Below, piece after piece: positions 12,456 through 53,951 of a stretch of 64,000 bases of DNA (position 1 is its first letter; each line of letters starts with the position of its first letter). Below the pieces are notes generated by a model. That model was given only the letters and a program-made list of their open reading frames with translations. It was not told where the DNA came from and searched no databases. This stretch comes from a virus: positions 4,654 through 68,653 of IMG/VR virus record IMGVR_UViG_3300045988_108221; one strand, given 5' to 3'. A program made the translations under genes and the position numbers.

Positions 12456-12488
12456 ATAAAAAATAAGGGGCATCATTAAGATGCCCCC
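12456..12488 (-). terminator. rho-independent terminator after the major tail gene
   Basis: GGGGCATC / GATGCCCC stem (12467-12474 / 12480-12487), followed on the minus strand by TTATTTTTT. Confidence 0.75.
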
Positions 12489-12496
12489 ATAAGTTT

Positions 12497-13294: not shown

Positions 13295-13322
13295 TAAGTA
13301 TTCTCCTGTAATTAAGATGTAA

Positions 13323-20785: not shown

Positions 20786-20820
20786 CTCTATATATAGTAT
20801 AAAACACTTTAATTTTGTAA
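20786..20820 (-). promoter_or_regulatory. 35-bp late-promoter-like element, copy R1
   Basis: Minus-strand TTACAAAATTAAAGTGTTTTATACTATATATAGAG, about 20 nt upstream of the terL SD. Confidence 0.55.
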
Positions 20821-20840
20821 CACTTTTTTGAGAAAAATTA

Positions 20841-21513: not shown

Positions 21514-21553
21514 ATAAGTAGAAATCATGGAAACACACAGGAGGAAACATATC

Positions 21554-22084
21554 ATGGCTAATACAACAGAACCAATTAGAAATCTATCAAAAGTCCAAGA
21601 AATGAAACAAGCACTAGGGAATGACCGAGATAAAATGTTGTTCACTCTTGGCATTAACTCTGGTCTCCGCATCAGCGACCTTGTCGGTCTCACAGTCGAT
21701 GATGTTAAACCAGAGATGGAATTGTATGAACAAAAGACAGGTAAGTTCAAACGGTTTATGTTATCTAAAGAGGTCTACGCATTGTTATGCGAATACGCAA
21801 GCCGATGCAAGCATTGGTTATTTCCAAGTCGCTCTGGTGACGGACATATCTCGACCGTACAAGCGTGGAGGAAAATCAAAGCTGCATCCGTGAAATGTGG
21901 TTTAGATAACATCGGTACGCACTCGATGCGTAAAACATTTGGATACCATGCGTATCGCAAAGGTGTACCGATTGCGTACCTTATGCAAGTCTTTAATCAT
22001 TCCTCGGAAGCAATCACAATGCGATACATTGGTATCACAACAGAGGAATTAAATACTAAAGTGTATGCCATTATGGCTTTATAA
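21554..22084 (+). CDS. minimal tyrosine recombinase (catalytic domain only)
   Basis: Start at ATG 21554 behind AGGAGG. Catalytic signature present: GLRISD (Arg), KTGKFK (Lys), HSMRKT (H..R), NHSSEAITMRY (His, Tyr). Only about 25 aa precede the catalytic domain. Confidence 0.8.
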   Translation: MANTTEPIRNLSKVQEMKQALGNDRDKMLFTLGINSGLRISDLVGLTVDDVKPEMELYEQKTGKFKRFMLSKEVYALLCEYASRCKHWLFPSRSGDGHISTVQAWRKIKAASVKCGLDNIGTHSMRKTFGYHAYRKGVPIAYLMQVFNHSSEAITMRYIGITTEELNTKVYAIMAL

Positions 22085-22722: not shown

Positions 22723-22757
22723 CTCTACTTATAGGGTAAAACATTTGATTTTTGTAA
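22723..22757 (-). promoter_or_regulatory. 35-bp late-promoter-like element, copy R2
   Basis: Minus-strand TTACAAAAATCAAATGTTTTACCCTATAAGTAGAG. Points toward terS through the antisense strand of the recombinase cassette. Confidence 0.5.
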
Positions 22758-22939
22758 CACTTTTTTCTTAAAATTGGATAAATATTTTATTTTACATGGT
22801 AAAATTTACCCCTCAAAAATGCCACTCAGCTCAGTAAATATCTGTGTTTCAAGACTTGAAAAAATTTTTTCCAGTTTATGAGTAAAAAATGCCCCATAAG
22901 TCTTAAATCTATAAAATGCGATACAGGATTTTTAACTCG

Positions 22940-23234
22940 CATGGTACTAGGCTGGTGTCACACTCCTATGGTAGTGCTTGGGTTGGACGGCATCTGACCC
23001 ACATGGGATAAAATCGAACGAATGTACGTTGGTAAACACAACCATAGTATCGTGATGAATTTTCACAAGCACAACACTAGGGTCGTGATTTTGGATGGAA
23101 AATAGTTTGGCTGCGGCCTGTAGTTAGTCTGACTAAAAATAAAGCAATCACCATCCTATGATGGTGATTAACTATGTTGAAAAATATTGTCCAAACGATA
23201 CACAGTCCTAGTATTGCATCTCCCTAGTACCATG
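22940..23234. repeat. 12-bp perfect inverted repeat CATGGTACTAGG flanking a 271-bp segment
   Basis: CATGGTACTAGG at 22940-22951 and its reverse complement at 23223-23234. Part of a TACTAGG motif family (22945, 23207 inverted, 23223 inverted, 23257, 23293, 23744). Confidence 0.7.
23134..23169 (-). terminator. hairpin plus T-run in ORF-free DNA
   Basis: 10-bp stem AATCACCATC / GATGGTGATT (23146-23155 / 23160-23169), followed on the minus strand by GCTTTATTTTT. Confidence 0.45.
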
Positions 23235-23718
23235 TCACAAACTTATAATAACGCTATACTAGGAAAACATACATCAAAAAACATAATCATCATACTAGGG
23301 TTTACATATTATAGAAAATCATAAGTTACCTTGTATGCAACCCTAAAAATTTCTACAAAAATTTTAAACGATTGTATATTCGATAGACAACTCAAATTGG
23401 AAAATACGATTGTTCCATATGATGTTTCATATCTTAGACAATCTATTGAAACGATTGTTTTATCGATAGTATTTGCGATTGTTTTCTACATATGTTATGT
23501 GTTTAAATGTATGAAACCATAGATAAAACATGGGTTTGTAGACCATTGTATGGTGTGTTTTGTATATAGCCATTGTTTGTACTGGGGTATGTTTCTTATG
23601 TGTGGACTTAGGTATGCTCTTGGGTTTGTTATGATTATACCGCCCCCAGCTGAGAATGGTTCTCCCTTTTGGATATTGAAAATTTTCGATACGCTTAGGG
23701 GTGTCTCATTGGTTCATA

Positions 23719-23732
23719 TGAACATATGTTCA
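23719..23732. promoter_or_regulatory. 14-bp perfect palindrome TGAACATATGTTCA (GAAC-N4-GTTC core)
   Basis: Read directly; flanked by further CATATG half-sites (23715-23740). Confidence 0.6.
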
Positions 23733-24377
23733 CATATGCACCATACTAGGGTTAGTCAATCAATCGAATAGTATCAATGTAATAGAATATCTAATTGCTT
23801 ACATTCATTATCACTTGTATTCTCAATATGTAGATGTCATATATTGAAAACTATCGATATATATGTTTGTACATAGAGTATTCGTTCATGTATCAACTAA
23901 CGGTTTACAGTTGGGTAACATATGAGTAGATACTCATGTATGCACTATATGCATTATACCTATGATTTTAAGTAATGTTTAATATTGGTCTTGGCTGGCG
24001 GTGGTTGTAAAATTGTATTTTACACAATGTTTTTTATTTGGGTACATCAATAAGGGTTCAAAATTCTGTAGTATCACTCGCCTAAGTCAATGCCATTGTA
24101 CACCCTACGTACACTACCAAAGTACAACCACATCACAATACAATACGTTTATACATCTGTTACATACATGAGTAATACATATGTATAAAACAAATAAAAA
24201 TACAACGATATACAACGATTGTATATAACAGATATATTTACCGTTGTATGCTCATTTGTATTCGTTGCATATGTTTATATTCGAACGAGATTAAACGCAC
24301 CGTATAACTCAAATAAATCAATCGTTTATTCTCATTTAGTCGTGCGTATTGATAACGCCTGCGTTATGTGTAGCATA

Positions 24378-24391
24378 TGAACATACGTTCA
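24378..24391. promoter_or_regulatory. palindrome TGAACATACGTTCA (GAAC-N4-GTTC core)
   Basis: Read directly; one mismatch from the 23719 copy. Confidence 0.55.
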
Positions 24392-24440
24392 TATGTTATG
24401 TTTGTATGAATGGTTGTTTATATATTGAATATAAATATAA

Positions 24441-24465
24441 GCGGTACAGAAATGATCTGTACCGC
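24441..24465 (-). terminator. GCGGTAC-stem hairpin after gene 24476..24736
   Basis: 10-bp stem GCGGTACAGA / TCTGTACCGC with a 5-nt loop. The downstream T-run on the minus strand is weak. Confidence 0.45.
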
Positions 24466-24475
24466 TTGTTATTGT

Positions 24476-24736
24476 TTACATATAACATTCAACAAGACTT
24501 TGCACGGTATCTTTATTTACAGTATCAAGGCTATCCAAATATGTGCTATTTGTATGTATAGCTATTAACTTATTTTTATAGCCTTTTTTACTAATAATTT
24601 TAAATCTAATTAAATAGTTCCATCCTTCCATATCGTTAAAATATAGGAATTTTACTGATGTACATTTAATGTTATCAATTAAATGTAGATTTCTTTGTAA
24701 AAAGTCAAATAATGCATTATATGTATATGTTTTCAT
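24476..24736 (-). CDS. hypothetical protein (AT-rich cassette)
   Basis: Start moved to ATG 24736 (MKTYTYNALFDF..) behind AAGGGG; 86 aa. Confidence 0.5.
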   Translation of the reverse strand: MKTYTYNALFDFLQRNLHLIDNIKCTSVKFLYFNDMEGWNYLIRFKIISKKGYKNKLIAIHTNSTYLDSLDTVNKDTVQSLVECYM

Positions 24737-24753
24737 TTTAATAACCCCTTTTC

Positions 24754-24945
24754 TTAACATTCCCAATAATCAACAATATCATTATGGGCAGTAATTAAAT
24801 CAATCATGTGAAAATATAAATATTCTTTTGAACATTCCCATAACTCATTAGAATTATTATTAATAGTTGCCACATCATGAGCGTGATTTATTGCATAATC
24901 GATGTACACCATGGATATATACGTTATGAGACTGCCAAAATACAT
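24754..24945 (-). CDS. hypothetical protein (AT-rich cassette)
   Basis: 63-aa ORF; no convincing SD seen. Confidence 0.3.
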   Translation of the reverse strand: MYFGSLITYISMVYIDYAINHAHDVATINNNSNELWECSKEYLYFHMIDLITAHNDIVDYWEC

Positions 24946-24972
24946 ATGGTCTAAAAACGCTATATTTGCTTT

Positions 24973-25176
24973 CTAAGGCGTTTTATATGTTTTACATACA
25001 ATCATAAGCGAATGTTTTTACACGCACCCTATAGCGTAAAATAACGAATGTTTTATTGAGAAATGTTCTCAAAATATATGGATGCCTACGCTGGTGTTCT
25101 CATTTAGGATTTCTAATTGAGAATTGCTGCTTAAGGTGTACACGCAAGAAAAAGCGGTATCTATAAGGATACCGCC
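24973..25176. repeat. non-coding repeat module, copy A
   Basis: Aligns block by block with 28637-28810: TACAATCATAA, ATAACG, TTATTGAGAA, ACGCTGG, TTCTCATTT, TCTAATTGAGAAT, then a GGCGGTAT-stem hairpin. Confidence 0.65.
25146..25176 (-). terminator. rho-independent terminator after gene 25184..25495
   Basis: GCGGTATC / GATACCGC stem (25154-25161 / 25168-25175), followed on the minus strand by TTTTTC. Confidence 0.7.
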
Positions 25177-25183
25177 GTATAAA

Positions 25184-25495
25184 CTATAATTCATTTAGAG
25201 TGTTTTTGTAAACCGTGTATAATTCATGTTCAAGGAACGGCAACCATCTCCATTTATCCGCTTTGTCTAAAATCCTTTCATTGATAAACACAATTTCAGA
25301 TATAACATAAGCACGATAATTCATAGTATTTTCGTGTTCCTCTTTTACCCTACTAGGGTTATAACCGTAACACTCGGCATCTCGTAAGAAATTTAATAAT
25401 TTACCTTTATCTTTTGTAGGCTTGCCACTTGTAGCATAATTAGATACTACGTTCAATATAGCTTTTTTCGTGTATTCGTTTTTGATAGTAAACAT
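25184..25495 (-). CDS. hypothetical protein (AT-rich cassette)
   Basis: 103-aa ORF with a terminator directly downstream. Confidence 0.5.
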   Translation of the reverse strand: MFTIKNEYTKKAILNVVSNYATSGKPTKDKGKLLNFLRDAECYGYNPSRVKEEHENTMNYRAYVISEIVFINERILDKADKWRWLPFLEHELYTVYKNTLNEL

Positions 25496-25525
25496 TATTA
25501 TATTACCTCTTTTTATTCCTTTCGT

Positions 25526-25915
25526 TTATACGATATAACTACTTGCAACGGCGAGCCGTTCGCCGTCAATCATAATCTGAACACCTTTATATAAGTTAAT
25601 AGGTAGTAAATATCTTTGATGTGTATAACTATAAATATGCTCGTTTTCATAAATCAAAAATTGCCCTTGATTATTCTGTAATTTAACTTTATATAAATCA
25701 AACTTGATATAATACCGCCGTAAAACACGATTATTTTTATCAAGTAAGATATAAAACTCTTTGCCTTCGCTATCACATGGATAATAAGTGATAGCGTTAT
25801 CTATTTTATATAGTGTACCATTGTTATATAATCGGTTGCGTTTTTCTATTGTGATAGGTTTAAACTCTACCCACTTTAAACCATAATACACTTTTATGTT
25901 TTCTACTGTTTTCAT
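25526..25915 (-). CDS. hypothetical protein (AT-rich cassette)
   Basis: 129 aa; GGAGGG SD. Confidence 0.55.
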   Translation of the reverse strand: MKTVENIKVYYGLKWVEFKPITIEKRNRLYNNGTLYKIDNAITYYPCDSEGKEFYILLDKNNRVLRRYYIKFDLYKVKLQNNQGQFLIYENEHIYSYTHQRYLLPINLYKGVQIMIDGERLAVASSYIV

Positions 25916-25997
25916 GTGTTCCCTCCGATGTGATCACTTATGATTATATTCCACGGTTAAACACAAACGGTATAACCGTGGTTAAAAAATTCTTATG

Positions 25998-26066
25998 TTA
26001 TAATGTTTGATTGTTTTTCGTGCGTTGAATAAACACGATAATTAAACTTAATAAAACTAAAGCCAT
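25998..26066 (-). CDS. possible 22-aa hydrophobic peptide
   Basis: AAAGGGGA SD, then MALVLLSLIIVFIQRTKNNQTL. Below the ORF-track cutoff. Confidence 0.3.
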   Translation of the reverse strand: MALVLLSLIIVFIQRTKNNQTL

Positions 26067-26098
26067 ATAAATATGTTCCCCTTTCGATTGATAAGCAA

Positions 26099-26401
26099 CT
26101 ATAGATATAACTCATCAAGATAATATAGCAAATCAAGATATCTATTGAGAGACTTTATAAAGTCATTCAAATTGTTGTATTCCTTATGTGTTCCCTTAAC
26201 AGTAATAAAACAATAATTATTACCTTGCACAAATATATGTATATCGTAGTCATGATATAATAACGTATGTATTTTATCGTATTCTACATAGCTATAAAAC
26301 ATATAACTTTCTGCATATGTGATAATTTCATAATCTTTTGACATATCAAATATAAATGCATTTAGGTTTATAATCTTATGTATATTATCTTTTGTTTTCA
26401 T
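26099..26401 (-). CDS. hypothetical protein (AT-rich cassette)
   Basis: 100 aa; AGGGGTG SD. Confidence 0.55.
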   Translation of the reverse strand: MKTKDNIHKIINLNAFIFDMSKDYEIITYAESYMFYSYVEYDKIHTLLYHDYDIHIFVQGNNYCFITVKGTHKEYNNLNDFIKSLNRYLDLLYYLDELYL

Positions 26402-26411
26402 ATTTTCACCC

Positions 26412-26771
26412 CTAACAATAAACTACAAATGGACTATACATATCTGTGTATGCAACACATGATTCACAACAAATATTTCTAAATGTTTTTTCATAGTCAA
26501 TCGATATCCAATACGGTAAATCACCATATAAACCACTTTCATAAAAATATAAGTCTATATAATTATAAATATCTGTATAATACCAACAATCACCATTTTT
26601 AATATATTCGCTTGACTCGTCAATATTCAAATCTTGACTTAAAATGTCAAGCATATCCATTTCATATTCTGAAAATTCGTTGATACACTCAAGAAAATCA
26701 TGCAATCCATCAAGTGTTCCTAACTCGTTTTTATATTGTCGTGCATATTGTAACAATGTTATAAATTCCAT
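26412..26771 (-). CDS. ArdA-like antirestriction protein (C-terminal domains only)
   Basis: YNYIDLYFYESGLYGDLPYWISIDYEKTFRN parallels the Tn916 ArdA segment YDVARYYIEETGALGEVPASLQNYIDYQAYGRD (from memory). Acidic; lacks the ArdA N-terminal domain. Confidence 0.4.
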   Translation of the reverse strand: MEFITLLQYARQYKNELGTLDGLHDFLECINEFSEYEMDMLDILSQDLNIDESSEYIKNGDCWYYTDIYNYIDLYFYESGLYGDLPYWISIDYEKTFRNICCESCVAYTDMYSPFVVYC

Positions 26772-26782
26772 GTTGTACCTCT

Positions 26783-27367
26783 TTAACCGTTAATTTCTGT
26801 AATAAGTCCGATATCTTCACCGTCAATAGTAAAATAGTATTGACTACAATAATTTATTAATTCCTTTGTATCTAATAAGTCATTATGGTTATTATGATAA
26901 TGTTCTATAATTAATTCTATATCTTTATCAAAATCATAAAAACTTTGTTGTAATTTTCTCCATTCGTTCGCAAGTTGTAAACATTCGCTATCAGATAATA
27001 AAAGATAATTCTCTAACTTAAAGCCGTTAACATCAAATATTTGATATTTTACGTTTTCGCCGTTTATGTCTGCATTAGGTAAAACAAAACGAATAAGCAA
27101 TGATAATTTTTTATTATCGTTTATAAACATTTCTAAAGCATCACCATAATAGCTATATTTATAAAGACATTGATAATGAGTAGTAATATTATATTCTTTT
27201 TCTTGTACATTAGATAATAATATCATATCAATAAGTTCGTCAATCATTCCATTATGAATGATATTATCAAGCATATTTTTCTTTATTTTATTTTGTACAT
27301 CAATAGATAATTCATTATATTCATATATATTAATTGTCTTTGTTTCTGTTTTTGTAATTGTTTTCAT
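26783..27367 (-). CDS. hypothetical protein (AT-rich cassette)
   Basis: Start moved to ATG 27367 (MKTITKTETKTINIYEYNELS..) behind AAGAGG; 194 aa. Confidence 0.5.
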   Translation of the reverse strand: MKTITKTETKTINIYEYNELSIDVQNKIKKNMLDNIIHNGMIDELIDMILLSNVQEKEYNITTHYQCLYKYSYYGDALEMFINDNKKLSLLIRFVLPNADINGENVKYQIFDVNGFKLENYLLLSDSECLQLANEWRKLQQSFYDFDKDIELIIEHYHNNHNDLLDTKELINYCSQYYFTIDGEDIGLITEING

Positions 27368-27368
27368 T

Positions 27369-27635
27369 TTAACCTCTTTCAATAATCATATATAATTCTT
27401 CATTATTTACTTTTTCAATGTGTAACGGCGAAAATTTTCGAATAAATCTATTTAAGTATTTAGATGTGGTATGAGAATATTTTTCTCTATCTTGATACAT
27501 TACATCATTTTTACTATCATATACGGCAATCAAAGTATTATAACTTTGAAAAGCTGTTAGATTTAAACAGATATTAATAATAAATTGATTGGGAACCGTG
27601 TTACCCTTACTACTTAACATATTTTGTACTAACAT
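27369..27635 (-). CDS. conserved phage/plasmid protein of unknown function
   Basis: The pattern NQFII....FQSYNTLIA....YSHTTSKYLNRFI recalls a widespread unnamed phage/plasmid family (memory only). Confidence 0.5.
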   Translation of the reverse strand: MLVQNMLSSKGNTVPNQFIINICLNLTAFQSYNTLIAVYDSKNDVMYQDREKYSHTTSKYLNRFIRKFSPLHIEKVNNEELYMIIERG

Positions 27636-27748
27636 AATTTTTGCCCTTTCATTCGTTCCAATACGGTATATACTCTATTCATACCGTACACCATAGCCAC
27701 AGTAAACACCATAGCCAAAACATTTTTTAAAATCATAGATAATTCCAT
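27629..27748 (-). CDS. possible 39-aa membrane peptide
   Basis: MELSMILKNVLAMVFTVAMVYGMNRVYTVLERMKGQKLC. Stop overlaps the next start (ATGTTAG). First ORF after promoter 27900-27928. Confidence 0.35.
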   Translation of the reverse strand: MELSMILKNVLAMVFTVAMVYGMNRVYTVLERMKGQKLC

Positions 27749-27899
27749 AGGCTACACCCTTTCGATTAAATATATAACCTTTTCTATGGTCTTATTGTAC
27801 CGCTTAGTAGGTGCAATGTACAATAGTTTTTATCTATGGTTGCCATAGTTTTAAGCTATGGCGGTACACCATTGAATACCGCTATACAATAGATATATA

Positions 27900-27928
27900 T
27901 AAATACCACAAAAACACGAATTTGTCAA
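27900..27928 (-). promoter_or_regulatory. sigma70-type promoter for cassette 27748->25184
   Basis: Minus-strand TTGACA (27928-27923), 17-nt spacer ending in TGG, then TATTTA. Confidence 0.55.
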
Positions 27929-28259
27929 ATTTTAGCAAAAACCAAGCGTAAATGAGAATGTCTCTCAATAAAACGTTTAAATATTTGCGTTCTAAGGTCT
28001 GTCTAAAGTCTCCGCCTTATGATTGTATGCAAAAAGTCAAAAACGCCGTACAACGCAAATAAATCAATTCTAGAGGTATTGTCTAAATGAGAATGACGGT
28101 GGTATCTTTTGTATGCATACATAAGTTATGAATTTGTTTGTCTACAATAGACACCGTTGTATATCGAATGTTTTCTATATGTTATTAACAAATATAATCA
28201 TTATTGACTAATAGCTAAAATTTTCGATATGGTTTACGCAGGCGGTGGTCGTGCAATAT

Positions 28260-28457
28260 GGTTGTATGCAATCGAATTTCACGCAACGGTTTTTCATCTG
28301 AATATATGTTCATATGTTCACACATCGGTTATATGAATAAGTTTTCATATGAACATACATTCATTTGAAAACATATGAATATATGCTCATGTATTCATTT
28401 ATTGAACACATGAAAGTATGTTCAATTATTCATATGTTATAATCGGTTGTATGCAAT
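28260..28457. repeat. CATATG-palindrome array bracketed by 13-bp direct repeats
   Basis: GGTTGTATGCAAT at 28260-28272 and 28445-28457. Between them are 4 CATATG sites (28311, 28346, 28372, 28431) inside TTCATATGAA / GAACATA..TTC-type palindromes. Confidence 0.7.
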
Positions 28458-28636
28458 TTAATTGTGGTATCTCGCAGGATTTACCGTATTGAGAATATTT
28501 CTCATTTAAGCTGCGGTATATTGTGATGTCTTCTATAGGCGTACACATTCATATGTTTTGTACATAAAAACAAACAAACGCAAAAACACGCAAAAAGTCA
28601 TATATCATAAAATCGTGTATTTTCGCTTGTATGCTC

Positions 28637-28810
28637 GTTTAGGTGTTTTATGTACAATCATAAACGGAACATCTGAAAACTGCCGTATAACTCAAATAAC
28701 GCAACTTTTATTTGAGAACAATTATCAAATACGCTGGCTTTTCTCATTTGTAGTATCTAATTGAGAATACGATGGTAAAACAAAAGGCGGTATACCTTAA
28801 GTATACCGCC
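28637..28810. repeat. non-coding repeat module, copy B
   Basis: Paralog of 24973-25176 (see that entry). Confidence 0.65.
28777..28810 (-). terminator. rho-independent terminator
   Basis: 10-bp stem GGCGGTATAC / GTATACCGCC (28786-28795 / 28801-28810), followed on the minus strand by TTTTGTTTT. Confidence 0.75.
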
Positions 28811-28816
28811 AATGGT

Positions 28817-28918
28817 TTATAGGTCTTCTAGTCCCTCTTCTAAGTCTTTTTTATAATCTTCATCTACGTTATCAAGTAGCGCCTTAATATATTCTTGTTC
28901 AACGATAAAATAAAACAT
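28817..28918 (-). CDS. possible 33-aa acidic peptide
   Basis: MFYFIVEQEYIKALLDNVDEDYKKDLEEGLEDL, with GGAGGA 10 nt upstream and a terminator directly downstream. Confidence 0.35.
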   Translation of the reverse strand: MFYFIVEQEYIKALLDNVDEDYKKDLEEGLEDL

Positions 28919-28987
28919 AAGTTGATCATCCTCCGTTATTATTAAGTGCTTAAAGCGTTGGCGGTACATAAGTACCGCCGTTAGTGT

Positions 28988-29281
28988 TTATCTGAGTGGC
29001 TTTTCATCGTGTAGTATGATTTTGGCAACTCGCCAATTATATTGGCTTAAGTTTACCATGTATTCACTACCGCTTTTTGTACTACCGATTAGGCTTGAAT
29101 GTTTTTCGCCATCAAAATAATCACAAATTGTGGTGGTTTGATAGATACGCTCATTCAATGGATACACTTTAGACCAATTAGATTTACTATATTCAATCTC
29201 AATCAAATAAGGCTTTTTTAATAAATATCTGTGTTCCTCTAGGTAGTCAACTAATTTTGATAAACTAGAAAATTCTTTCAT
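28988..29281 (-). CDS. hypothetical protein (AT-rich cassette)
   Basis: Start moved to ATG 29281 (MKEFSSLSKLVDYLEE..) behind GAAAGGGG; 97 aa. Confidence 0.55.
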   Translation of the reverse strand: MKEFSSLSKLVDYLEEHRYLLKKPYLIEIEYSKSNWSKVYPLNERIYQTTTICDYFDGEKHSSLIGSTKSGSEYMVNLSQYNWRVAKIILHDEKPLR

Positions 29282-29486
29282 GAGTTTTACCCCTTTCAAT
29301 ATAAAATTATAAAAGACCTACGAAAGACATTTATCATCTTTCGTTACACTCATTATACACCTAGAGGGGCAATCTGCATAATAGAAAAAATCTATGGATA
29401 GTCATAACTTTAAGCTATGGCGGATAACCGCACTCCGCAGGATTTATCCATACAATTCTATTGTGTACAACTGAATTTTACGCCGT

Positions 29487-29600
29487 CATATGAATATGTG
29501 CTCATATGTTCATGTATCGTTACATGAATGTCTGTTCATATGAACAACTGTTCAGATGACAACACATGAACGAATGTTCATATGTTCAAACGCTCATATG
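29487..29600. repeat. second CATATG-palindrome array
   Basis: 5 CATATG sites in 114 bp (29487, 29503, 29537, 29579, 29595). GAAC-N4-GTTC cores at 29542-29553 and 29568-29579. Flanks resemble those of the 28260-28457 array (CAATCGAATT..). Confidence 0.7.
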
Positions 29601-29785
29601 ATTGAATACAATCGAATTGCATGAGACTATATCGAAAGTTTTCACGCTTTAATCATCTAAAGTATTCGAACTGATTGAAAAAATTCGATTAGTTGCAGGA
29701 TTTTCGATATACTGCACATCGAAAATTTTCGACCTTTAGTATACTAAAGTTTTCGATTAGATGGAAAATTTTGAATATATTAAAG

Positions 29786-29799
29786 TGAACAAATGTTCG
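29786..29799. promoter_or_regulatory. palindrome TGAACAAATGTTCG (GAAC-N4-GTTC core)
   Basis: Read directly. Confidence 0.5.
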
Positions 29800-29859
29800 C
29801 TGGTTGCAGGCGGTCTCGCAGGTCGTGGCGAGCACATGGGCGGTCAATATGTAATGCCT

Positions 29860-30400
29860 TGAAAAAACACACATATGTATTAATATATGAGCGTATATAT
29901 GTATAAAAATAGGGGTGAGATATATATGTATATATACATATATAAAATACCGTGGACATATACATATAAATATATACAAATGTAAAAATCCGTGGACAAT
30001 ATCATATATATAAACAATAAAAACCACCGCAGAATTGATTTAAATCGTTTATACGGTGTGTTTATATCCACGGTGGTATATTTGTATACCACATATGTGA
30101 AAACCACCGTACAATGCAAATAAATGAATTTCATGAGATGATGTGGTCGTATGAACATATGTTCAATCATGGGTATTGCCACGTGGTATCATGGAAGATT
30201 AAAAACAAACAAATGTTCGGTTGTTTTTCTCTTAGGCAGCATCCGTGGTTCGTCAATAGAATACCCCATGAACACACCATAATACACACCAATAGATAAA
30301 CACATATATCATCGACACATATATACGTTTGTTTAATACCACGATATATATAAATAAAAAAATACCACCGCATAAAACGTGGACACATAACGAACGTATA
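29860..30400. repeat. AT-rich (ATATAC/TATATA) block with short iterons; origin-like
   Basis: CCGTGGACA at 29950 and 29990, ACGTGGACA at 30377. ACCACCGY at 30023, 30103, 30364 and inverted at 30070. TATATA/ATATAC runs between them. Confidence 0.5.
30152..30165. promoter_or_regulatory. second perfect copy of TGAACATATGTTCA
   Basis: Identical to 23719-23732. Confidence 0.6.
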
Positions 30401-30608
30401 ATGTATAAGCAATATATGCTGCGGATGCACGATTGTTTCATGCAGGTGTTCGCCATGATTTTTATGCTGTGGTATTTATAATAGACAACAGGTAGTACAC
30501 GCATAAATGTTAGCTGTATTTAAAATGGTGGTATGATTACCTGTGTGCTGTGTTTGGGATGCATCACACAATGTTGGTGTATACATGCACTCATCTGTTG
30601 TCATTTAT

Positions 30609-37710: not shown

Positions 37711-38046
37711 TTAAAACATTTTGAGTGTAAACCATGTTGCCATTATAATGTTGAAAATCGTAAGACCAAAACACCATGCTTTAAGCCATAAGACAGAACG
37801 CTTGTTTTTCTGTACTTCACAGTTAATCGCACGAAACTTCAGTCTATTATCAATATTCGTATCTCGAATAATCAGGATGGTATCATCTAGCGTTTTTTGC
37901 AACTCTCTGATACTTCGTGTGTTTGATAACGACCGTTGGTTAGCTGCGGTTTGACCGCTAACAAGTAAATCAATGGCATGAGTTCGCTGCTTAACTTTAG
38001 CTTCCATCTGTAAGCATTTGGTTTTTATCTTCTGTATTAAGTTCAT
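37711..38046 (-). CDS. coiled-coil protein with C-terminal TM anchor
   Basis: C-terminus WLKAWCFGLTIFNIIMATWFTL. Confidence 0.5.
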   Translation of the reverse strand: MNLIQKIKTKCLQMEAKVKQRTHAIDLLVSGQTAANQRSLSNTRSIRELQKTLDDTILIIRDTNIDNRLKFRAINCEVQKNKRSVLWLKAWCFGLTIFNIIMATWFTLKMF

Positions 38047-38058
38047 TAAGACCTCCTG

Positions 38059-38490
38059 TTAATGCATTTGTGTTAAACCATATATAAACGTGCCACCTGT
38101 GATTACAATGACCGCAATTAAATACCAAAAGATACGTTTATACATTTTAACCATTTCGGCTCTTAACAAGATAACATCGGATGAAAGACTATCGAGTCGC
38201 TCTTGTTGATACTTTACAACTGTCGACAATTTGTCGGTAATACTATTTATTTGCTCAAATAGTGATTGTTGTGCTTTAAATGTTTCTGCGACTTTCTTGA
38301 GTTGTTCTTGTTGCGTTTGTAGTGATGTGGAAAGCACCTCGATTTGTTTGTGGTGTTCATCTATGGTACTAGAGTACTCTCCTAGCTGGAGGGTCGTGGT
38401 TTGTAATACCTCGTTATTTTTGCCAACATTCTTTGCCAATGTTCCCATCGTTTCGTGTGTACGTTGGTAAGCATCCATTAGTTCTGCCAT
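38059..38490 (-). CDS. coiled-coil protein with C-terminal TM anchor
   Basis: C-terminus IFWYLIAVIVITGGTFIYGL. Confidence 0.5.
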   Translation of the reverse strand: MAELMDAYQRTHETMGTLAKNVGKNNEVLQTTTLQLGEYSSTIDEHHKQIEVLSTSLQTQQEQLKKVAETFKAQQSLFEQINSITDKLSTVVKYQQERLDSLSSDVILLRAEMVKMYKRIFWYLIAVIVITGGTFIYGLTQMH

Positions 38491-39214: not shown

Positions 39215-39571
39215 TTACACCTGCTTTCTGCGATACTCAGTAATAGTTGTAAGTTCTGGGTACACTTCATACCACTCAAAATCAAATCTTTCGATGGTGT
39301 GAATGTCTTCTGAGAATTGCAAACAATGGTATTTATTTGTTTGAACATTGTGATAAATCTCTTTATGAACTAAGTGTTCGCCACCAAAGACTTCTTTTTC
39401 TTTAACCAACTCATAGTTGCCAAAAGAACAAAACACAATGTTTTCAACAATTTCAGTAATATATTGGTTTGGGTTTTCCAACCAATGAATACATACTAAG
39501 TCCATATCTTCGATAGACAAACCGTCAACACCATAGTCTGCGTAATGTTGTAACGCTTGCTCAGTTGTCAT
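39215..39571 (-). CDS. hypothetical protein
   Basis: 118-aa ORF. Confidence 0.5.
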   Translation of the reverse strand: MTTEQALQHYADYGVDGLSIEDMDLVCIHWLENPNQYITEIVENIVFCSFGNYELVKEKEVFGGEHLVHKEIYHNVQTNKYHCLQFSEDIHTIERFDFEWYEVYPELTTITEYRRKQV

Positions 39572-40262
39572 TTGTTTCCTCCTGTGTATTTAAAATCCGT
39601 TGCTTGGCAACATCGAAGTATAATGGGTCTAACTCAATACCAATGAAATCTCGACCCAACTCAACGGCTGCAACACCTGTTGTACCAGAACCCATAAATG
39701 GGTCAACAATAGTATATTCCTGTGGCAGAATACCTACGATGTTTTTCATTACTTGTAATGGCATCTGACATGGATGCACAGTTTTTTCTGCTGAGGTATT
39801 CTTAACGATATTAATATTCCACCAATCGTAAATCGGTGTGCCTTTAGAACCATTTGCTATTAGCTGTTTAATTCGTTTATCATTTGGGTTTTTGTACGGT
39901 TGTAACACTTGCTTGAAATCAGGCATTACACCAAAGAACGCAATATCACGATGTTGCTTGCGATTGTTTGTGTTATATACCCATGATACTACACGAGTTG
40001 GTGGCATGTCAATATCAATCGCAAGCTGATACAACTGTTCTGGATAGTGAATAACCACGGATGGATGCGATGGAGAAAATACCATAGATAACATATATCG
40101 GTATGCATCATCATCCATTTTATCGTGGTATTTGTCGTAATGATACCCAATGTTGAACGGAGGGTCTGACACGATGATGTACGGCTTGCTTTCTTCTTGC
40201 AGTTGGGTTTCTATTGATTGTAATATGTTTCGACAATCGTTGTGGTATAAATCAATCTTCAT
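39561..40262 (-). CDS. DNA N6-adenine / N4-cytosine methyltransferase
   Basis: Motif IV VSDPPFN and motif I VDPFMGSGTTGVAAVELGRDFIGIELD (beta-class order). Start taken at MKIDLYHNDC (40262). Confidence 0.8.
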   Translation of the reverse strand: MKIDLYHNDCRNILQSIETQLQEESKPYIIVSDPPFNIGYHYDKYHDKMDDDAYRYMLSMVFSPSHPSVVIHYPEQLYQLAIDIDMPPTRVVSWVYNTNNRKQHRDIAFFGVMPDFKQVLQPYKNPNDKRIKQLIANGSKGTPIYDWWNINIVKNTSAEKTVHPCQMPLQVMKNIVGILPQEYTIVDPFMGSGTTGVAAVELGRDFIGIELDPLYFDVAKQRILNTQEETNDN

Positions 40263-40650
40263 AGTCTTCCTCAAATAACATTTTTGCGATTTCTTCGTCA
40301 TAACTGAAGCCAAGTAGTCGCAGGATACTATCTTTATCCTTTTCAGTAAATGCTCTGTGACCGTTCAATTTCAAAGACATATTTGTGAGACTCATCCCAA
40401 TTCTTGATGCAGCCTTGCTGACACTTAAATTTCGGTCTTTTAACATACCTCGTAACATTGTATATCGCTCTTGGTATCGTGTTCCAATGTCTACTTTGAG
40501 TCGTGCGAGATATGTTTTGACATCTTCAATATCTTTAAAAGTGTCGTCTTCTAACACCTTTTGCAATTTTGACAGTAACACCGATGTTTCTTCAAACTTT
40601 TTGTAATCTTCTTCAATGACGATACCATTAATTCTTACATGTGTTTTCAT
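40252..40650 (-). CDS. HTH (XRE-like) DNA-binding protein
   Basis: Start moved to ATG 40650 behind GGAGGA. C-terminal LSVSKAASRIGMSLTNMSLKLNGHRAFT helix-turn-helix. Confidence 0.55.
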   Translation of the reverse strand: MKTHVRINGIVIEEDYKKFEETSVLLSKLQKVLEDDTFKDIEDVKTYLARLKVDIGTRYQERYTMLRGMLKDRNLSVSKAASRIGMSLTNMSLKLNGHRAFTEKDKDSILRLLGFSYDEEIAKMLFEEDYED

Positions 40651-40667: not shown

Positions 40668-40686
40668 TGGGGCGGAAGAACCGCCC
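40668..40686 (-). terminator. GC-rich hairpin directly after the adhesin gene
   Basis: GGGGCGG aagaa CCGCCCC. The downstream T-run is weak, so possibly only an attenuator. Confidence 0.4.
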
Positions 40687-40695
40687 CATTTATTA

Positions 40696-42126
40696 TTATT
40701 TACTTAATAGATTTTCTAGCATTTCTACACGCTCTTTTAAGTCTTTTAACTCATCTCGTTTAACATTCGTTGTTTTACCAACTTTAAAGTTAACAGATGC
40801 ATTAGTCACCTTGGCAGAGCCAAAAGATTGTCCAACGTAGAACATTACATTTTCATTCGGAGCGTAGAACGCACCCAATGCACCAGCGTTTGCATTTTTG
40901 TAATGACCGAAGCCAGCACTAAAAGACAGTTTGTTGTTCACATCGAAACCATCCCAATGTAATGCACTCAAGGCAGATACAGATGCAATCGCTTTGTTTG
41001 TGCCACGTTCTAATTGATTGATTTTATTATCGAAGTTACCAAACATTTGTTGACTTTGATTTTCCAAAGTAATAATTCGGTTTTCATGGTTCATAGACAA
41101 TTGTTTTAACGCTGAAATATCGCCTGTGTGAGCGTTTTGGATGTCTCGTAATGTATTTACTTGTGCACTAACATTTGTGATGGATTGATGGTTCTCATTA
41201 ATTAATGCGGTATTAGAACGAATGTCTGCTGTATTGGTTCGCACTTGTTTTTGGGTTTCGACAATCGCATCTGCATTAGTGGCTACATATGTATGCAACT
41301 CATCAATGGCATCTTTGTTTGTTTTGATGTTGATTCCATTAGTATTGATTTCATCAATAGCTGCATGCAACTGAGAACCATTGACTGCATCTATAGAGTC
41401 AGAATCAATACGTCCAGCGGCTACATTCGTAATAGTTCGTTCCTTGCCTGTGTCGCCAATAGATATAGTACCTGCTGGGACAACACCAGCAAATGTATGC
41501 GTTTTGCCATTAATTACGGAAGAAGAAGTACCAATTACTACACTAGCTTTCGCATTATGTCCGATTGCTACGGATTCATCTTGGGTTACAGAAGCATCGT
41601 TACCAATAGCAATACCATAGTTAGCATGGTTGATTGTGCTAGATTTGCCTAAAATAATTCCGTGATAACTGTCTTGTAGTATATTTCTATTGCCAAGCAA
41701 TACATCGCCTGTAGAGTTGCCTGTGTGATTTTCCACATTATTAAAAGCACCGATTAGAACAGAATCCTTTGTAGCACCATGGTTAATATTGCCAATGTTA
41801 ACTGCATCATTCCCATCTGTAGTAAGTCCATAACCAATAGCTATGGAGGTCGTACTATTGGCATGAACTCCATTACCGATAGCAATAGTATTAATATTGT
41901 GTGCACCAACTCCATTGCCGATTGCGATGGCATTTGTGTTAGCAGTAACACCGTTGCCAAGACCAATGCTATTATTGCTTGTGTTGATTACTCCGTTACC
42001 AACTGCAACACTATTATCTTGAGCAGCAATAACACCATTGCCAAACTCCACTGGGTTTGCAAACACGCCCATAGTTGCCATTGCTAATACTGCGGATAAA
42101 ATTGTTGTTTTCATTTTGTTGTTCAT
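40696..42126 (-). CDS. trimeric autotransporter adhesin (YadA-like)
   Basis: Signal peptide MNNKMKTTILSAVLAMATMGVFA. About 12 head repeats of the S.A.G.G / NS.AIG type. Neck ERTITNVAAGRIDSDSIDAVNGSQLHA, about 120-aa coiled-coil stalk. C-terminal anchor ALSALHWDG..LSFSAGFGHYKNANAGALGAFYAPNENVMFYVGQSFG. Confidence 0.85.
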   Translation of the reverse strand: MNNKMKTTILSAVLAMATMGVFANPVEFGNGVIAAQDNSVAVGNGVINTSNNSIGLGNGVTANTNAIAIGNGVGAHNINTIAIGNGVHANSTTSIAIGYGLTTDGNDAVNIGNINHGATKDSVLIGAFNNVENHTGNSTGDVLLGNRNILQDSYHGIILGKSSTINHANYGIAIGNDASVTQDESVAIGHNAKASVVIGTSSSVINGKTHTFAGVVPAGTISIGDTGKERTITNVAAGRIDSDSIDAVNGSQLHAAIDEINTNGINIKTNKDAIDELHTYVATNADAIVETQKQVRTNTADIRSNTALINENHQSITNVSAQVNTLRDIQNAHTGDISALKQLSMNHENRIITLENQSQQMFGNFDNKINQLERGTNKAIASVSALSALHWDGFDVNNKLSFSAGFGHYKNANAGALGAFYAPNENVMFYVGQSFGSAKVTNASVNFKVGKTTNVKRDELKDLKERVEMLENLLSK

Positions 42127-42147: not shown

Positions 42148-42405
42148 TTACAAAGTTTTGTTTAATTGTTTAAAATAATCCAATACGTCTTCTTTTGTTT
42201 TCTTTTTAATTAGATTAATGTCCGTGGTTGTCCAATCGGCACTTGTGAGACACTTAGCATCAATAGATTTTAACCGTTTATGCCATTGGTCGGTACAAAC
42301 GTAAATCACACCTCGTTTCATCCGTAGACATTGCGATGTGTTCCAATGGTGTCTTCGAATGCCCTTGCCGTTTGACATCAATTCGTATGCTTCGTGGAAT
42401 CGCAT
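42148..42405 (-). CDS. DUF2829 / Tad2-like protein
   Basis: Start moved to ATG 42405 behind AAAGGAGA. MRFHEAYELMSNGKGIRRHHW fits the DUF2829 N-terminal pattern F.EA...M..GK.IRR..W. Also has the C-terminal ..ADW.. motif; 85 aa. Confidence 0.5.
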   Translation of the reverse strand: MRFHEAYELMSNGKGIRRHHWNTSQCLRMKRGVIYVCTDQWHKRLKSIDAKCLTSADWTTTDINLIKKKTKEDVLDYFKQLNKTL

Positions 42406-42578
42406 TTGCAACTCTTCTCCTTTCTTGGGAATAAACATAAGACTACAACACTTAATAGCATTGCCCCAAGCCATTCTTGGTTATTGAATATAAATGTTTG
42501 AATGAATGAACCACCCATCAGTAATAAACATGAGATGTCAATCATTCGTCTAATGTCAAGAATTAATTGTTTGTCCAT
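42378..42578 (-). CDS. small membrane protein
   Basis: CAGGAGG SD; two hydrophobic segments; 66 aa. Confidence 0.5.
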   Translation of the reverse strand: MDKQLILDIRRMIDISCLLLMGGSFIQTFIFNNQEWLGAMLLSVVVLCLFPRKEKSCKCDSTKHTN

Positions 42579-42888
42579 TTTCTTCCTCCTGTTGCTTTAA
42601 TTCTTTACGACCAATCTTTTGTAAAAATTTCCATGCTCTAAACATTGACACATAATCAAGGTTTATGTATGTACGGTTCTTTGGATGCTTTGGACAAGCC
42701 AAGTATATCCAATGTTCATCTGCTGACCGCAAGTGCTGAAGTATTGGTATTGGCTTTGTTTTGCACTTATAACAGCCATCTGTTTTTTGACACCTGTCTA
42801 ACACATCGTCAAACCCATCGCCATAATCAATGAAATACTCTCGTTTTTTCGGTAGCTTGCGACCACCGCCAAATCCTGTACTTGCCAT
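42556..42888 (-). CDS. Cys-rich (zinc-finger-like) protein
   Basis: CQKTDGCYKC ... LACPKH; AGGTGA SD; first gene after promoter 42911-42939. Confidence 0.5.
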   Translation of the reverse strand: MASTGFGGGRKLPKKREYFIDYGDGFDDVLDRCQKTDGCYKCKTKPIPILQHLRSADEHWIYLACPKHPKNRTYINLDYVSMFRAWKFLQKIGRKELKQQEEENGQTINS

Positions 42889-42910: not shown

Positions 42911-42939
42911 ATAATACCATATAAATATACTTATGTCAA
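42911..42939 (-). promoter_or_regulatory. sigma70-type promoter of the operon containing the Tad2-like and adhesin genes
   Basis: Minus-strand TTGACA (42939-42934), 17-nt spacer, TATTAT. Confidence 0.6.
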
Positions 42940-42974: not shown

Positions 42975-43004
42975 TAAAAAAAAGAGACCAACTATGTGGT
43001 CTCT
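42975..43004 (-). terminator. rho-independent terminator
   Basis: AGAGACCA actatg TGGTCTCT, followed on the minus strand by a run of 8 T (plus-strand A-run 42976-42983). Confidence 0.8.
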
Positions 43005-43010
43005 TATGTA

Positions 43011-50747: not shown

Positions 50748-50837
50748 TGGAGGAAAGTGTGGGATTTGAACCCACGGAACATTTCTGTTCGACAGTTTTC
50801 AAGACTGTTGCATTAAACCAAACTCTGCCAACTTTCC
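50748..50837 (-). tRNA. tRNA-Ser (anticodon UGA), type II, CCA encoded
   Basis: Hand-folded. Acceptor GGAAAGT/ACTTTCC. Anticodon arm ACAGT-CTTGAAA-ACTGT. Long variable arm GAACA-gaaa-TGTTC. T arm GTGGG-TTCAAAT-CCCAC. 3' end TCCA. Confidence 0.85.
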
Positions 50838-50934: not shown

Positions 50935-51026
50935 TGGAGGATGGTACAGGATTTGAACCTGTGGTCGTTTTAATGAACGACATCTCTTTAGCAAAGAGAC
51001 TCAATAAACCACTCTGACAACCACCC
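50935..51026 (-). tRNA. tRNA-Ser (anticodon GCU), type II, CCA encoded
   Basis: Hand-folded. Acceptor GGGTGGT/ACCATCC (G3-U70 wobble). Anticodon arm TCTCT-TTGCTAA-AGAGA. Variable arm GTCGTT-cattaa-AACGAC. T arm ACAGG-TTCAAAT-CCTGT. 3' end TCCA. Confidence 0.85.
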
Positions 51027-53162: not shown

Positions 53163-53951
53163 TTATATCTTCGCACAGGTTTCAAATTGTTCATCAGTAA
53201 ACCCCTGTAATCGCCAAAACTCCCTTGGGGTCAACTTGCGTATTACATTAGGATTTTTCGACAATAAAATCTTTGGTTCAATACCACCACCCTTGACACA
53301 CGTCAAAGTCGGTGATAAGCCATGTGGTGAATATATACGACCTCGTTGTGGATTGCCACCAAAAGATGTTGTCTTGATTATATTTCCGACTTGAATAATA
53401 GATTGTTCGCTTTGGTCTGGTCGGTATAATACTTCGGATGGACATTCGTTTCCAAGGTGTCCGATAACGAACAACCTTTCACGGTTTTGCGGAAGTCCAA
53501 AGTCTTTTGTGTTGTACACACGCCATGCGATACTGTACCCTGCTTTGTCCATTTCAGACAAAACGCCGTAAAATCCCCATCCGTTATCAATTGACAAGAG
53601 GTTTTTAACATTCTCAATAAGCAACCATTTGGGTTTATGTTTTGTTTCATTCAATAACCTCGTGACTTCGTAAAATAAACCGCTTCGTGTGTTTCCCATG
53701 CCGTCTTTCAGTCCAGCAATGGAAACATCTTGACATGGGAAACCGAAGCACCATAAGTCTGCATACGGCATCTCTGTACCGTTTAATGCACGAACATCTG
53801 GTGAAAACCAAAGATTATCCGTTGGGTATAACGCACGGTATGATTCTTGTGCGTATTTATCTTGTTCGCACCAACCAACGCACTTCATGCCAGCCTTGGT
53901 TAAGCCATAATGAAAACCGCCAATGCCAGCGAATAAATCAATGAATTTCAT
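53163..53951 (-). CDS. dcm: DNA (cytosine-5) methyltransferase
   Basis: Motif I FIDLFAGIGGF, motif IV GFPCQDVS, motif VI LLIENVKNLL, QNRERLF. Confidence 0.9.
   Translation of the reverse strand: MKFIDLFAGIGGFHYGLTKAGMKCVGWCEQDKYAQESYRALYPTDNLWFSPDVRALNGTEMPYADLWCFGFPCQDVSIAGLKDGMGNTRSGLFYEVTRLLNETKHKPKWLLIENVKNLLSIDNGWGFYGVLSEMDKAGYSIAWRVYNTKDFGLPQNRERLFVIGHLGNECPSEVLYRPDQSEQSIIQVGNIIKTTSFGGNPQRGRIYSPHGLSPTLTCVKGGGIEPKILLSKNPNVIRKLTPREFWRLQGFTDEQFETCAKI

Follow-up and report, generated by a model that had tools for sequence, protein, structure and literature searches.

A 64,000-nucleotide stretch of viral DNA (IMG/VR record IMGVR_UViG_3300045988_108221, positions 4,654 to 68,653; hereafter, the window) carries on its minus strand, at 40696..42126, a gene for a 476-amino acid (aa) protein. 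Profile searches and comparison with solved structures confirmed the predicted product as a complete YadA-type trimeric autotransporter adhesin (TAA). We propose, with about even confidence, that it is a functional TAA of the Veillonella type, carried as an accessory cassette by an apparently non-integrating phage of ~68 kb and made early in infection as a "lytic conversion" adhesin.

The gene product has the domains of a complete trimeric autotransporter adhesin

The open reading frame (ORF) begins with ATG behind a Shine-Dalgarno sequence (AGGAGA), is intact, and closes with a triple stop codon, TAATAATAA. Its first 23 residues (42058..42126), MNNKMKTTILSAVLAMATMGVFA/NP, form a predicted Sec signal peptide with a basic n-region, a 15-residue hydrophobic core (mean hydropathy of 2.07 in a heuristic check), and a predicted cleavage site at VFA/NP. 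A hydropathy scan found no second membrane-spanning segment. The signal peptide is almost invariant across the phage family to which the window belongs and has been kept in all 91 phage TAAs that we extracted.

The head (aa 24-230, 41437..42057), referred to here as type A, consists of ~13 YadA-type β-roll repeats with an insert ahead of the neck. The initial annotation had estimated about 12 repeats, and motif counting agreed: 12 repeats, each of 13-19 residues, are regular, and two extra matches (aa 196 and 221) lie in the transition to the neck. The Pfam YadA_head profile reached 22.2 bits, slightly below its cut-off of 25 bits. Thus, of the YadA profiles suggested as a check, those for the stalk and the anchor exceeded their cut-offs, but that for the head did not. 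The head is nevertheless secure because solved TAA heads match the protein with E values ranging from 7e-17 (Burkholderia BpaA, 4usx) to 4e-9 (Moraxella UspA1, 3ntn/3pr7). An AlphaFold2 (AF2) model of the monomer was β-rich over aa 26-233, with a predicted local distance difference test (pLDDT) score of 70-85.

The neck, or connector (aa 231-275, 41302..41436; RTITNVAAGRIDSDSIDAVNGSQLHA), matched Pfam YadA_stalk over aa 231-274 with 40.9 bits (cut-off, 28.4), and its residues N234, A237, G238, R239, D246, and N249-L253 are invariant in the family. It leads into a coiled-coil stalk (aa 276-375, 41002..41301), which we delimited from the alignment and from the AF2 model, where aa 250-379 form one long helix of ~130 residues (pLDDT 76-89). 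The stalk differs in length among family members by insertions and deletions in the alignment.

The β-barrel anchor (aa 376-450, 40777..41001) was recognized both by Pfam YadA_anchor (PF03895; 34.1 bits against a cut-off of 22.7, aa 397-447) and by phmmer, which aligned the YadA anchor 2lme to aa 360-447 (E=5e-8). Homology to 2lme implies four β-strands per protomer. The AF2 monomer, which had a mean pLDDT of 63 over the whole protein, gave just two short strands and a pLDDT <50 at aa 374-457; that the barrel is poorly modelled is expected of an obligate trimer, a context that is absent from the model.

The anchor is followed by a periplasmic coiled-coil domain (aa 451-476, 40699..40776; ...NVKRDELKDLKERVEMLENLLSK), assigned from its helix, its heptads, and its likeness to Veillonella TAAs. 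In all, 29 residues lie beyond the anchor end at F447. AF2 placed a helix at aa 461-474, the a and d positions of the heptads are hydrophobic in five of six cases, and the alignment to PDB entry 9gh4 reaches aa 461, past the anchor. The tail noticed in the initial annotation is therefore present; however, it is not unusual as was stated there, being documented in TAAs of Veillonella and other Terrabacteria. The remaining parts named there, from the Sec signal peptide through the neck and the coiled-coil stalk to the YadA anchor, were all recovered, and with them the complete adhesin.

The protein has 6135 homologs at E<=0.001, the top match having E=5e-282. With NCBIfam models, its matches to YadA, Ata, BimA, EmaA, and Vomp remained far below threshold, and it is thus orthologous to none of the named TAAs. 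GenBank entry DAT71425.1, titled "MAG TPA: hypothetical protein [Caudoviricetes sp.]," has the identical sequence and is encoded on a contig of 68,727 bp whose genes are arranged as in the window; the IMG pipeline labels this sequence "autotransporter adhesin."

The adhesin gene is a cassette maintained by purifying selection

To avoid a bias toward TAA carriers, we sampled the phage family through a neighboring gene that encodes a 280-aa phosphoesterase. The TAA gene occupied the same slot in 26 of the 32 related IMG/VR contigs obtained in this way and was also found there in ENA/Logan assemblies of separate samples. In two relatives (L049 and L050), the gene that precedes the TAA gene in the window (g85) is joined to the downstream g132 and DNA methyltransferase genes, with no TAA in between. 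In L064, whose backbone is divergent, only the TAA gene and the hairpin behind it could be aligned (83% DNA identity). The TAA gene and its hairpin are thus a cassette that is either present or absent. Outside metagenomes, megablast with 8 kb around the gene found no match among 50,697 deposited phage records, and tblastn with the protein against the deposited phage collection returned two Salmonella genome contigs only and no cultured relative.

The cassette is maintained. The ratio of nonsynonymous to synonymous substitution rates (dN/dS) was 0.04-0.42 in every domain, demonstrating purifying selection. Anchor and tail are 85-93% identical at the protein level across the family, and their dN/dS of 0.04-0.08 was measured at a dS of 0.7-0.9; thus, their similarity reflects constraint and not recent spread. 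Positive selection on the head was not supported, as its pairwise dN/dS was 0.14-0.22, and the diversity of heads comes from the exchange of modules, not from rapid point substitution. Recombination within the gene is evident from the comparison of L004 with L072, in which head and neck are nearly identical (dS 0-0.09), while the anchors have diverged (dS 0.82).

Adhesins of other phage lineages and exchange of their heads

A scan of IMG/VR identified 293 viral contigs with relatives of the TAA. Judged by representatives, four further contig classes are genuine phages. In a 34-kb class, the TAA gene stands between a RecE-like module and the genes for terminase and portal; in a 41-kb class, it is followed by terminase and head-tail adaptor genes; and in a 43-kb class, a full-length integrase is encoded ~3.5 kb away. 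The fourth class, of 224-235 kb, comprises jumbo phages with DNA polymerase, SbcC, and a virion protein, and two TAAs are encoded on one contig. In addition, an 88-kb contig binned to Veillonella contains a temperate element that encodes an antirepressor and a serine recombinase. All 91 phage TAAs that we extracted (257-876 aa in total length) combine the signal peptide with a short passenger, an anchor, and a coiled-coil tail, and none of them has an SLH domain.

In the window's family (the 66-kb family), 90 of 104 TAAs have a head of type B and 13 one of type A, as in the window; the two types are only 31% identical. Outside the family, type A heads are closest to those of a 224-kb jumbo phage (71%) and of the temperate Veillonella element (73%), with 49% identity to a chromosomal TAA. 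The closest relatives of type B are in the 41-kb (72%) and the 34-kb (64%) classes. Anchors, however, are 39-54% identical between phage lineages and about 90% identical within the window's family. The periplasmic tail changes alongside the anchor, both being conserved jointly within the family and divergent jointly between lineages. Because heads share 64-73% identity where anchors share 39-54%, barrel and tail are inherited per lineage, and heads come from a limited set that the lineages have in common.

We also considered whether the head type varies together with the tail-fiber module of the virion and rejected this. The tail modules of type A, type B, and TAA-less phages are collinear, those of type A and type B phages have ~88% DNA identity to that of the window, and similar tail modules thus accompany A, B, or no TAA. 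Tentatively, and with less than even confidence, we suggest that Veillonella phages (apparently virulent siphoviruses of ~68 kb, jumbo phages of 224-235 kb, and temperate ones) routinely encode compact TAAs, with barrels and periplasmic tails kept per lineage and heads traded, more distant relatives of these heads being present on the host chromosome, and that these represent an undescribed class of "lytic conversion" proteins.

The jumbo-phage TAAs were located at 6001-10006 of a ~224-kb ENA contig (L001) and at 9764-11899 of a 234.7-kb IMG/VR contig (L099). Their lengths are 767 plus 418-420 aa, or 711 aa; all have a signal peptide and, behind the barrel, a periplasmic coiled coil of greater length, and their neighbors encode RNA ligase, HU, Mu Gam, an SNF2 helicase, and a Sequestin-domain protein. 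These two phages presumably also infect Veillonella. A 54.7-kb IMG/VR contig (L098) contains three tandem TAA genes at 7862-13920 (503, 599, and 876 aa; the longest product has a long non-coiled C-terminal extension), flanked by genes for several radical-SAM proteins, and L096 and L136 contain these genes as well. Given these flanks and its unconfirmed phage origin, L098 was not counted as a phage carrier.

The phage appears to replicate free, most likely in Veillonella

We surveyed the family in more than 100 protein clusters and at ~60 IMG/VR loci; its contigs measured 63-72 kb and were never longer, and none had host flanks. The offset and orientation of the TAA region vary widely among them. 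The size limit, the permuted starts, and the lack of host flanks together indicate a free, circularly permuted genome and not a prophage. Among the ORFs of the window that were scanned, we found no repressor, no partition genes, and no full-length integrase. The ~68-kb phage thus appears to replicate free and not to integrate.

The host is most likely Veillonella, a diderm Firmicute, as suggested by homology. Cellular matches to anchor and tail come from Veillonella atypica, V. tobetsuensis, V. intestinalis, Megasphaera, and Dialister, and a Veillonella sp. protein, WP_295285723.1, aligns to 95% of the query with 50% identity. At a chromosomal TAA locus binned to Veillonella (L024; flanked by genes for an ATP-grasp enzyme, a major facilitator superfamily transporter, and a ClpB-like protein), the head shows 49-51% identity. 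Megasphaera and Dialister genomes are more GC-rich than those of Veillonella, and the GC content of the window, 38%, thus fits Veillonella better. A diderm Firmicute host would in part explain why Firmicute-like signals surround a gene for an outer-membrane protein. The family is found in the human gut and mouth, and syntenic contigs were recovered from a number of metagenomes, several of them of the human gut.

The tail behind the anchor points in the same direction. In every Veillonella TAA, the anchor is followed by one more domain, which is of the SLH type or a coiled coil (PMC7549365). Periplasmic domains are near-universal in TAAs of Terrabacteria and rare in those of Proteobacteria, and the short periplasmic coiled coil is required for TAA stability and coevolves with the barrel (bioRxiv 10.64898/2026.01.22.700529). 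Since such a domain is typical of Veillonella and Terrabacteria TAAs, the tail marks the host lineage.

The adhesin gene closes a predicted early transcription unit

Upstream of the TAA gene, at 42911..42939 on the minus strand, lies a σ70/SigA-type promoter (TTGACA-17-TATTAT with an extended −10 TG) that would start a four-gene unit. It had been proposed in the initial annotation, and our scan upheld it: 11 of 12 positions match the consensus, and it follows directly on an intrinsic terminator (42982..43005, minus strand; AAGAGACCACATAGTTGGTCTCTT and then a T-run) that closes the preceding unit and is kept in the subclade. In the relatives L002 and L040-L048, both hexamers are invariant while the spacer varies, and the conservation of hexamers over a drifting spacer makes it likely that the promoter works. 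The terminator scan predicted no minus-strand terminator between this promoter and the TAA gene. No promoter was found in the 21 nt that separate g85 from the TAA gene, the nearest one being ~0.8 kb upstream and common to three other genes.

A 30-nt motif (reverse complement TGTTACAAAA...TTTTATACTATA) occurs in exactly three copies, whereas none is expected by chance. All copies (6817-6846, 20793-20822, and 22730-22759) are in the structural and packaging region and none is near the TAA gene, and the motif is a candidate for a phage-specific late promoter. Because the promoter of the TAA unit follows the consensus and is conserved, and because the late-type motif is absent from its vicinity, it is a reasonable inference that the unit belongs to an early class that depends on the host polymerase.

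The first gene of the unit, g110 (42556..42888, minus strand), encodes a 110-aa putative zinc-ribbon protein with a CX5CX2C...CX2H pattern. It matched no Pfam or PHROG family and is 60-91% conserved across the phage family. The second, g66 (42378..42578, minus strand), encodes a small hydrophobic, putative membrane protein (hydropathy maximum of 1.69 over 19 residues), also without a family match. The third, g85 (42148..42405, minus strand), is weakly Tad2-like (DUF2829): only its N-terminal half aligned to PF11195, with 23.7 bits against a cut-off of 25. Its true start is probably the ATG at 42405 (85 aa), not the start of the 108-aa ORF; homologs are called as 85 aa in relatives, and 108 aa were called on the 68,727-bp contig that encodes DAT71425.1. 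Thus, the cotranscription claimed for these genes agrees with the single promoter and the lack of a predicted terminator, but the Tad2-like label is weak, and the zinc-finger and membrane labels derive from sequence features alone.

Right behind the triple stop codon of the TAA gene, we found the GC-rich stem-loop that had been noted there (40668..40686, minus strand; GGGGCGG-UUCUU-CCGCCCC). Its folding energy is -19.7 kcal/mol (z = -3.8), none of 200 shuffled sequences was equally stable, and it is kept, with substitutions that preserve pairing, in each member of the 66-kb family examined. Its U-tract on the sense strand is weak (AAAUUAUU), and a terminator score was obtained on the opposite strand only; thus, the hairpin may attenuate transcription or stabilize the 3′ end instead of causing full termination. 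The next gene, g132 (40252..40650, minus strand), has a weak helix-turn-helix match (HTH_31/HTH_26, below cut-off). We reassigned its start to the ATG at 40650, which is preceded by the Shine-Dalgarno sequence GGAGGA and agrees with 132-aa calls in L004 and L162. The 145-aa ORF that begins inside the hairpin, at 40689, is probably spurious, and the start at 40650 makes the hairpin intergenic. GC content is 0.38 in a 2-kb segment over the TAA gene and 0.36-0.39 in neighboring segments. Just downstream of the unit, an N6/N4 DNA methyltransferase is encoded at 39561-40313 (minus strand). Two adjacent genes at 37711-38046 and 38059-38490 (minus strand), ~2.2 kb downstream of the TAA gene, encode coiled-coil proteins of 111 and 143 aa with hydrophobic C-terminal segments.

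Relation to known adhesins and phage surface proteins

The closest known counterparts are VtaA, VtaE, and VtaF of Veillonella parvula, which likewise combine a signal peptide, a YadA-type head, a neck, a stalk, an anchor that is not terminal, and a coiled coil behind the barrel (PMC7549365; 10.64898/2026.01.22.700529). Cellular Veillonella TAAs are the nearest non-phage relatives, with ~40% identity in anchor and tail and 49-51% in the head, and, as a further point in common, domains are swapped between paralogs. In contrast to VtaA, VtaE, and VtaF, which have ~3,000 aa, the phage-encoded TAA has only 476 and stands behind a phage early promoter, not in a chromosomal adhesin cluster. Moreover, unlike in Veillonella TAAs, its anchor and tail fall into a clade specific to its phage family.

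The Eib proteins (EibA/C/D/E/F/G), encoded by lambdoid prophages of E. coli and named as the precedent in the initial annotation, are also phage-borne, similar in size, and built from a YadA-like head, neck, stalk, and anchor. The Eib genes, however, are part of integrated prophages and are expressed by lysogens, while the TAA gene of the window is in a lytic early unit of a genome never seen integrated. EibD structures are present in the PDB, and no Eib chain was among the 17 PDB matches to the TAA at E<=10. To our knowledge, Eib proteins also lack a periplasmic domain. Thus, the Eib precedent applies to the concept of a phage-borne TAA, but neither the structural matches nor any sign of integration extended it further. 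Eib proteins, the textbook example of TAAs borne by phages, cause autoaggregation and chain formation (PMC12511318, PMC5450701).

Yersinia YadA resembles the TAA in overall size and lollipop plan, and the NCBIfam model YadA_autotrans aligned to aa 157-447. The score of 59.6 bits, as compared to the family cut-off of 750 bits, shows that the two are not orthologs; unlike the TAA, YadA is plasmid-borne, belongs to a proteobacterium, and lacks a periplasmic tail. A functional analogy, and nothing beyond it, exists with Llp of phage T5, an outer-membrane protein made early in the host by a virulent-type phage (PMC9586334). Llp, however, is a lipoprotein of small size whose target, FhuA, is the receptor of the phage itself, whereas the TAA would be a barrel-anchored fiber whose head is independent of the tail module. 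Last, the likeness to morons such as lambda lom and bor, also raised earlier, is partial: the gene is a dispensable cassette amid conserved genes, followed by a stem-loop and with an outer-membrane product, but it has no promoter of its own, its GC content does not deviate from that of its surroundings, and it is part of a lytic early unit in a phage that is not known to form lysogens.

Possible functions of the adhesin

In the mechanism that we favor, host RNA polymerase would read the promoter at 42939-42911 early in infection, giving a single message for g110, g66, g85, and the TAA, as the transcription signals and their conservation suggest. The precursor would cross the inner membrane through Sec and lose its 23-residue signal peptide. 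By homology, three anchors would form a 12-stranded outer-membrane barrel with the β-barrel assembly machinery (BAM), and the 26-residue periplasmic coiled coil would guard the protein against degradation as in host TAAs. The stalk would pass through the pore and the passenger would fold outside, producing a lollipop of ~20-25 nm that, from its domain lengths, would be similar in size to YadA. The head would then bind a ligand and glue the infected cell to neighboring Veillonella, partner cells, or the substratum, and the burst would be released within a dense aggregate of hosts. Shielding against other phages may be a side effect. The head would serve as an exchangeable specificity module from a small pool common to unrelated Veillonella phages, and anchor and tail as a lineage-specific insertion module.

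We favor a role in adhesion because VtaA, VtaE, and VtaF, which have a similar tail, adhere, as shown for these host TAAs (10.64898/2026.01.22.700529). In addition, that conserved head types are so few and so widely shared suggests defined ligands and not a generic shield; this sharing, together with the recombination inside the gene, also speaks for the binding of specific ligands and against random drift.

Several points weigh against this proposal. Its steps of expression, localization, and binding are all deduced from sequence, and the host was assigned from homology, binning of metagenome-assembled genomes, and GC content. The autoaggregation known for TAAs is homotypic, and infected cells would therefore clump together and not with fresh hosts. 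The TAAs of the host reach ~3,000 aa, and a passenger of ~350 residues could lie buried beneath them. The absence of the gene from 6 of 32 relatives shows that it is dispensable. Finally, a Xer-like recombinase encoded at 21527-22084 allows a plasmid-like or carrier state, in which the adhesin would bring about conversion of the ordinary lysogenic type.

Superinfection exclusion or surface shielding, in which an early TAA layer blocks the adsorption of further phages, whether of the same or of competing kinds, and may spare the loss of progeny on debris, is the main alternative, although an unlikely one. The early promoter provides the timing expected of exclusion proteins, and T5 Llp, which blocks FhuA, is an example of a protein that a virulent phage places in the outer membrane early (PMC9586334). 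Competition between phages is also plausible, as at least four phage lineages, probably with the same host, carry TAAs. However, because the head type does not track the tail module (heads A and B, 31% identical, or no TAA at all stand beside ~88%-identical tail modules), masking of a specific receptor is weakened. The sharing of head modules by several lineages further implies coinfection, which strong exclusion would prevent, and a purely steric shield would not need two conserved and widely shared head types.

The conversion of carrier cells or lysogens by a plasmid-like prophage, resolved by the Xer-like recombinase and using the TAA for colonization or, in the manner of Eib or YadA, for evasion of immunoglobulin or complement, seems improbable to us. 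The gene at 21527-22084 does encode a tyrosine-recombinase catalytic domain (plus strand; PF00589, 84.6 bits), with XerA and XerD as best NCBIfam matches and weaker ones to FimB/E-type invertases. Related TAAs are also encoded near integrases in two clearly temperate elements, L122 (tyrosine integrase) and L006 (serine recombinase and antirepressor), and the Eib proteins are a prophage precedent (PMC12511318, PMC5450701), although the TAA shows no similarity to them. Yet this recombinase, the only one found, has just 185 aa, too short for a classical integrase, and no N-terminal DNA-binding domain; it may resolve dimers or invert a segment. It adjoins the packaging module on the strand opposite to almost all other genes, and exact-sequence look-ups found neither this protein nor P0024 on record. 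Furthermore, the scanned ORFs included no repressor or partition genes, no family contig exceeded 72 kb or had host flanks, and the TAA gene is embedded in an early region of lytic direction, amid genes for replication and nucleotide metabolism.

It is very improbable that the TAA is a part of the virion or of the lysis machinery, either as a tail adhesin or, by way of its periplasmic coiled coil, as the partner in the outer membrane of a spanin-like system. This idea draws on a weak match to PHROG 17426, "tail/adhesin" (E=6e-7), and on the two coiled-coil proteins with C-terminal hydrophobic segments ~2.2 kb downstream (37711-38490). We also know of no established mode by which phages of Negativicutes breach the outer membrane. 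On the other hand, the signal peptide and the β-barrel anchor would route the protein to the outer membrane of the host, and the gene is outside the structural module and without a late-type motif. We rejected a spanin-like role of the coiled coil, as such tails generally serve the stability of host TAAs (10.64898/2026.01.22.700529), while a spanin needs no variable adhesive head and the gene is dispensable, being missing in 6 of 32 relatives. The idea that the two downstream coiled-coil proteins are its partners across the periplasm was likewise set aside. The chance that the gene is an artefact, namely, host DNA misassembled onto the phage or a decaying passenger, is negligible, as it has an intact frame, purifying selection in all domains, a GC content equal to that of its flanks, and the same slot, in synteny, in 26 of 32 relatives and in dozens of assemblies across different studies, which excludes the misassembly that the initial annotation had named as a refutation.

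Other features of the phage genome

The window represents a siphovirus-type genome with nearly all genes on the minus strand. We identified a J-like tail protein (1280-5131), a baseplate hub (5146-5964), a tape measure (6852-11831), an SU10-like capsid protein (15820-16842), and portal and large terminase (17783-20763). For DNA replication and the metabolism of nucleotides, the window encodes primase, DnaB, C5 and N6/N4 DNA methyltransferases, dUTPase, and dNMP kinase, and RusA and ThyX are annotated on related loci. The presence of terminase, portal, capsid, tape-measure, J-like tail, primase, and DnaB genes bears out the phage context claimed for the early operon. The C5-type methyltransferase (262 aa; 53163-53951, minus strand) matches its Pfam model over the first half only. 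Two tRNA-Ser genes with anticodons TGA and GCT (50748-50837 and 50935-51026, minus strand) lie amid the replication genes.

At 23000-30500, we observed an island of low GC content (26-33% as compared to ~38% elsewhere) that contains short ORFs only, together with a tRNA-Lys gene (27797-27871, plus strand). Palindromes of the TGAACATATGTTCA type cluster at 23707-23749, 24374-24397, 28291-28440, 29480-29605, and 30133-30168. The island may represent an origin of replication, an array of operators, or inserted foreign DNA.

Implications for Veillonella and its phages

Searchable open-access papers and preprints contained no report of TAAs in phages of Veillonella or in virulent or jumbo phages, and neither a global TAA survey nor a study of Negativicute phages mentions TAAs in Veillonella phages. 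As compared to the theme set by the Eib proteins, the host belongs to another phylum, the phage apparently does not integrate, the gene is in an early lytic unit and recurs in several lineages, and heads are exchanged as modules. Eib proteins are counted as lysogenic-conversion factors; here, an intact and selected TAA is encoded in the early region of a phage never seen integrated.

The coiled coil behind the barrel can serve as a practical host marker, as it identifies diderm Terrabacteria as the hosts of uncultivated "Caudoviricetes sp." genomes. For V. parvula SKV38, which can be manipulated genetically, aggregation and biofilm assays of TAAs exist. Veillonella bridges other organisms in dental plaque and is among the early colonizers of the gut. 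If our proposal is true, head exchange driven by phages would add to the adhesin diversity of these oral and gut commensals, and the adhesion of infected cells would be rewired during the lytic cycle, for example, by holding them in the biofilm or coaggregate, where progeny reach neighboring cells. Thus, if the TAA is displayed in lytic growth, virulent phages would reprogram the adhesiveness of cells that are about to die, and models of phage spread in biofilms would change.

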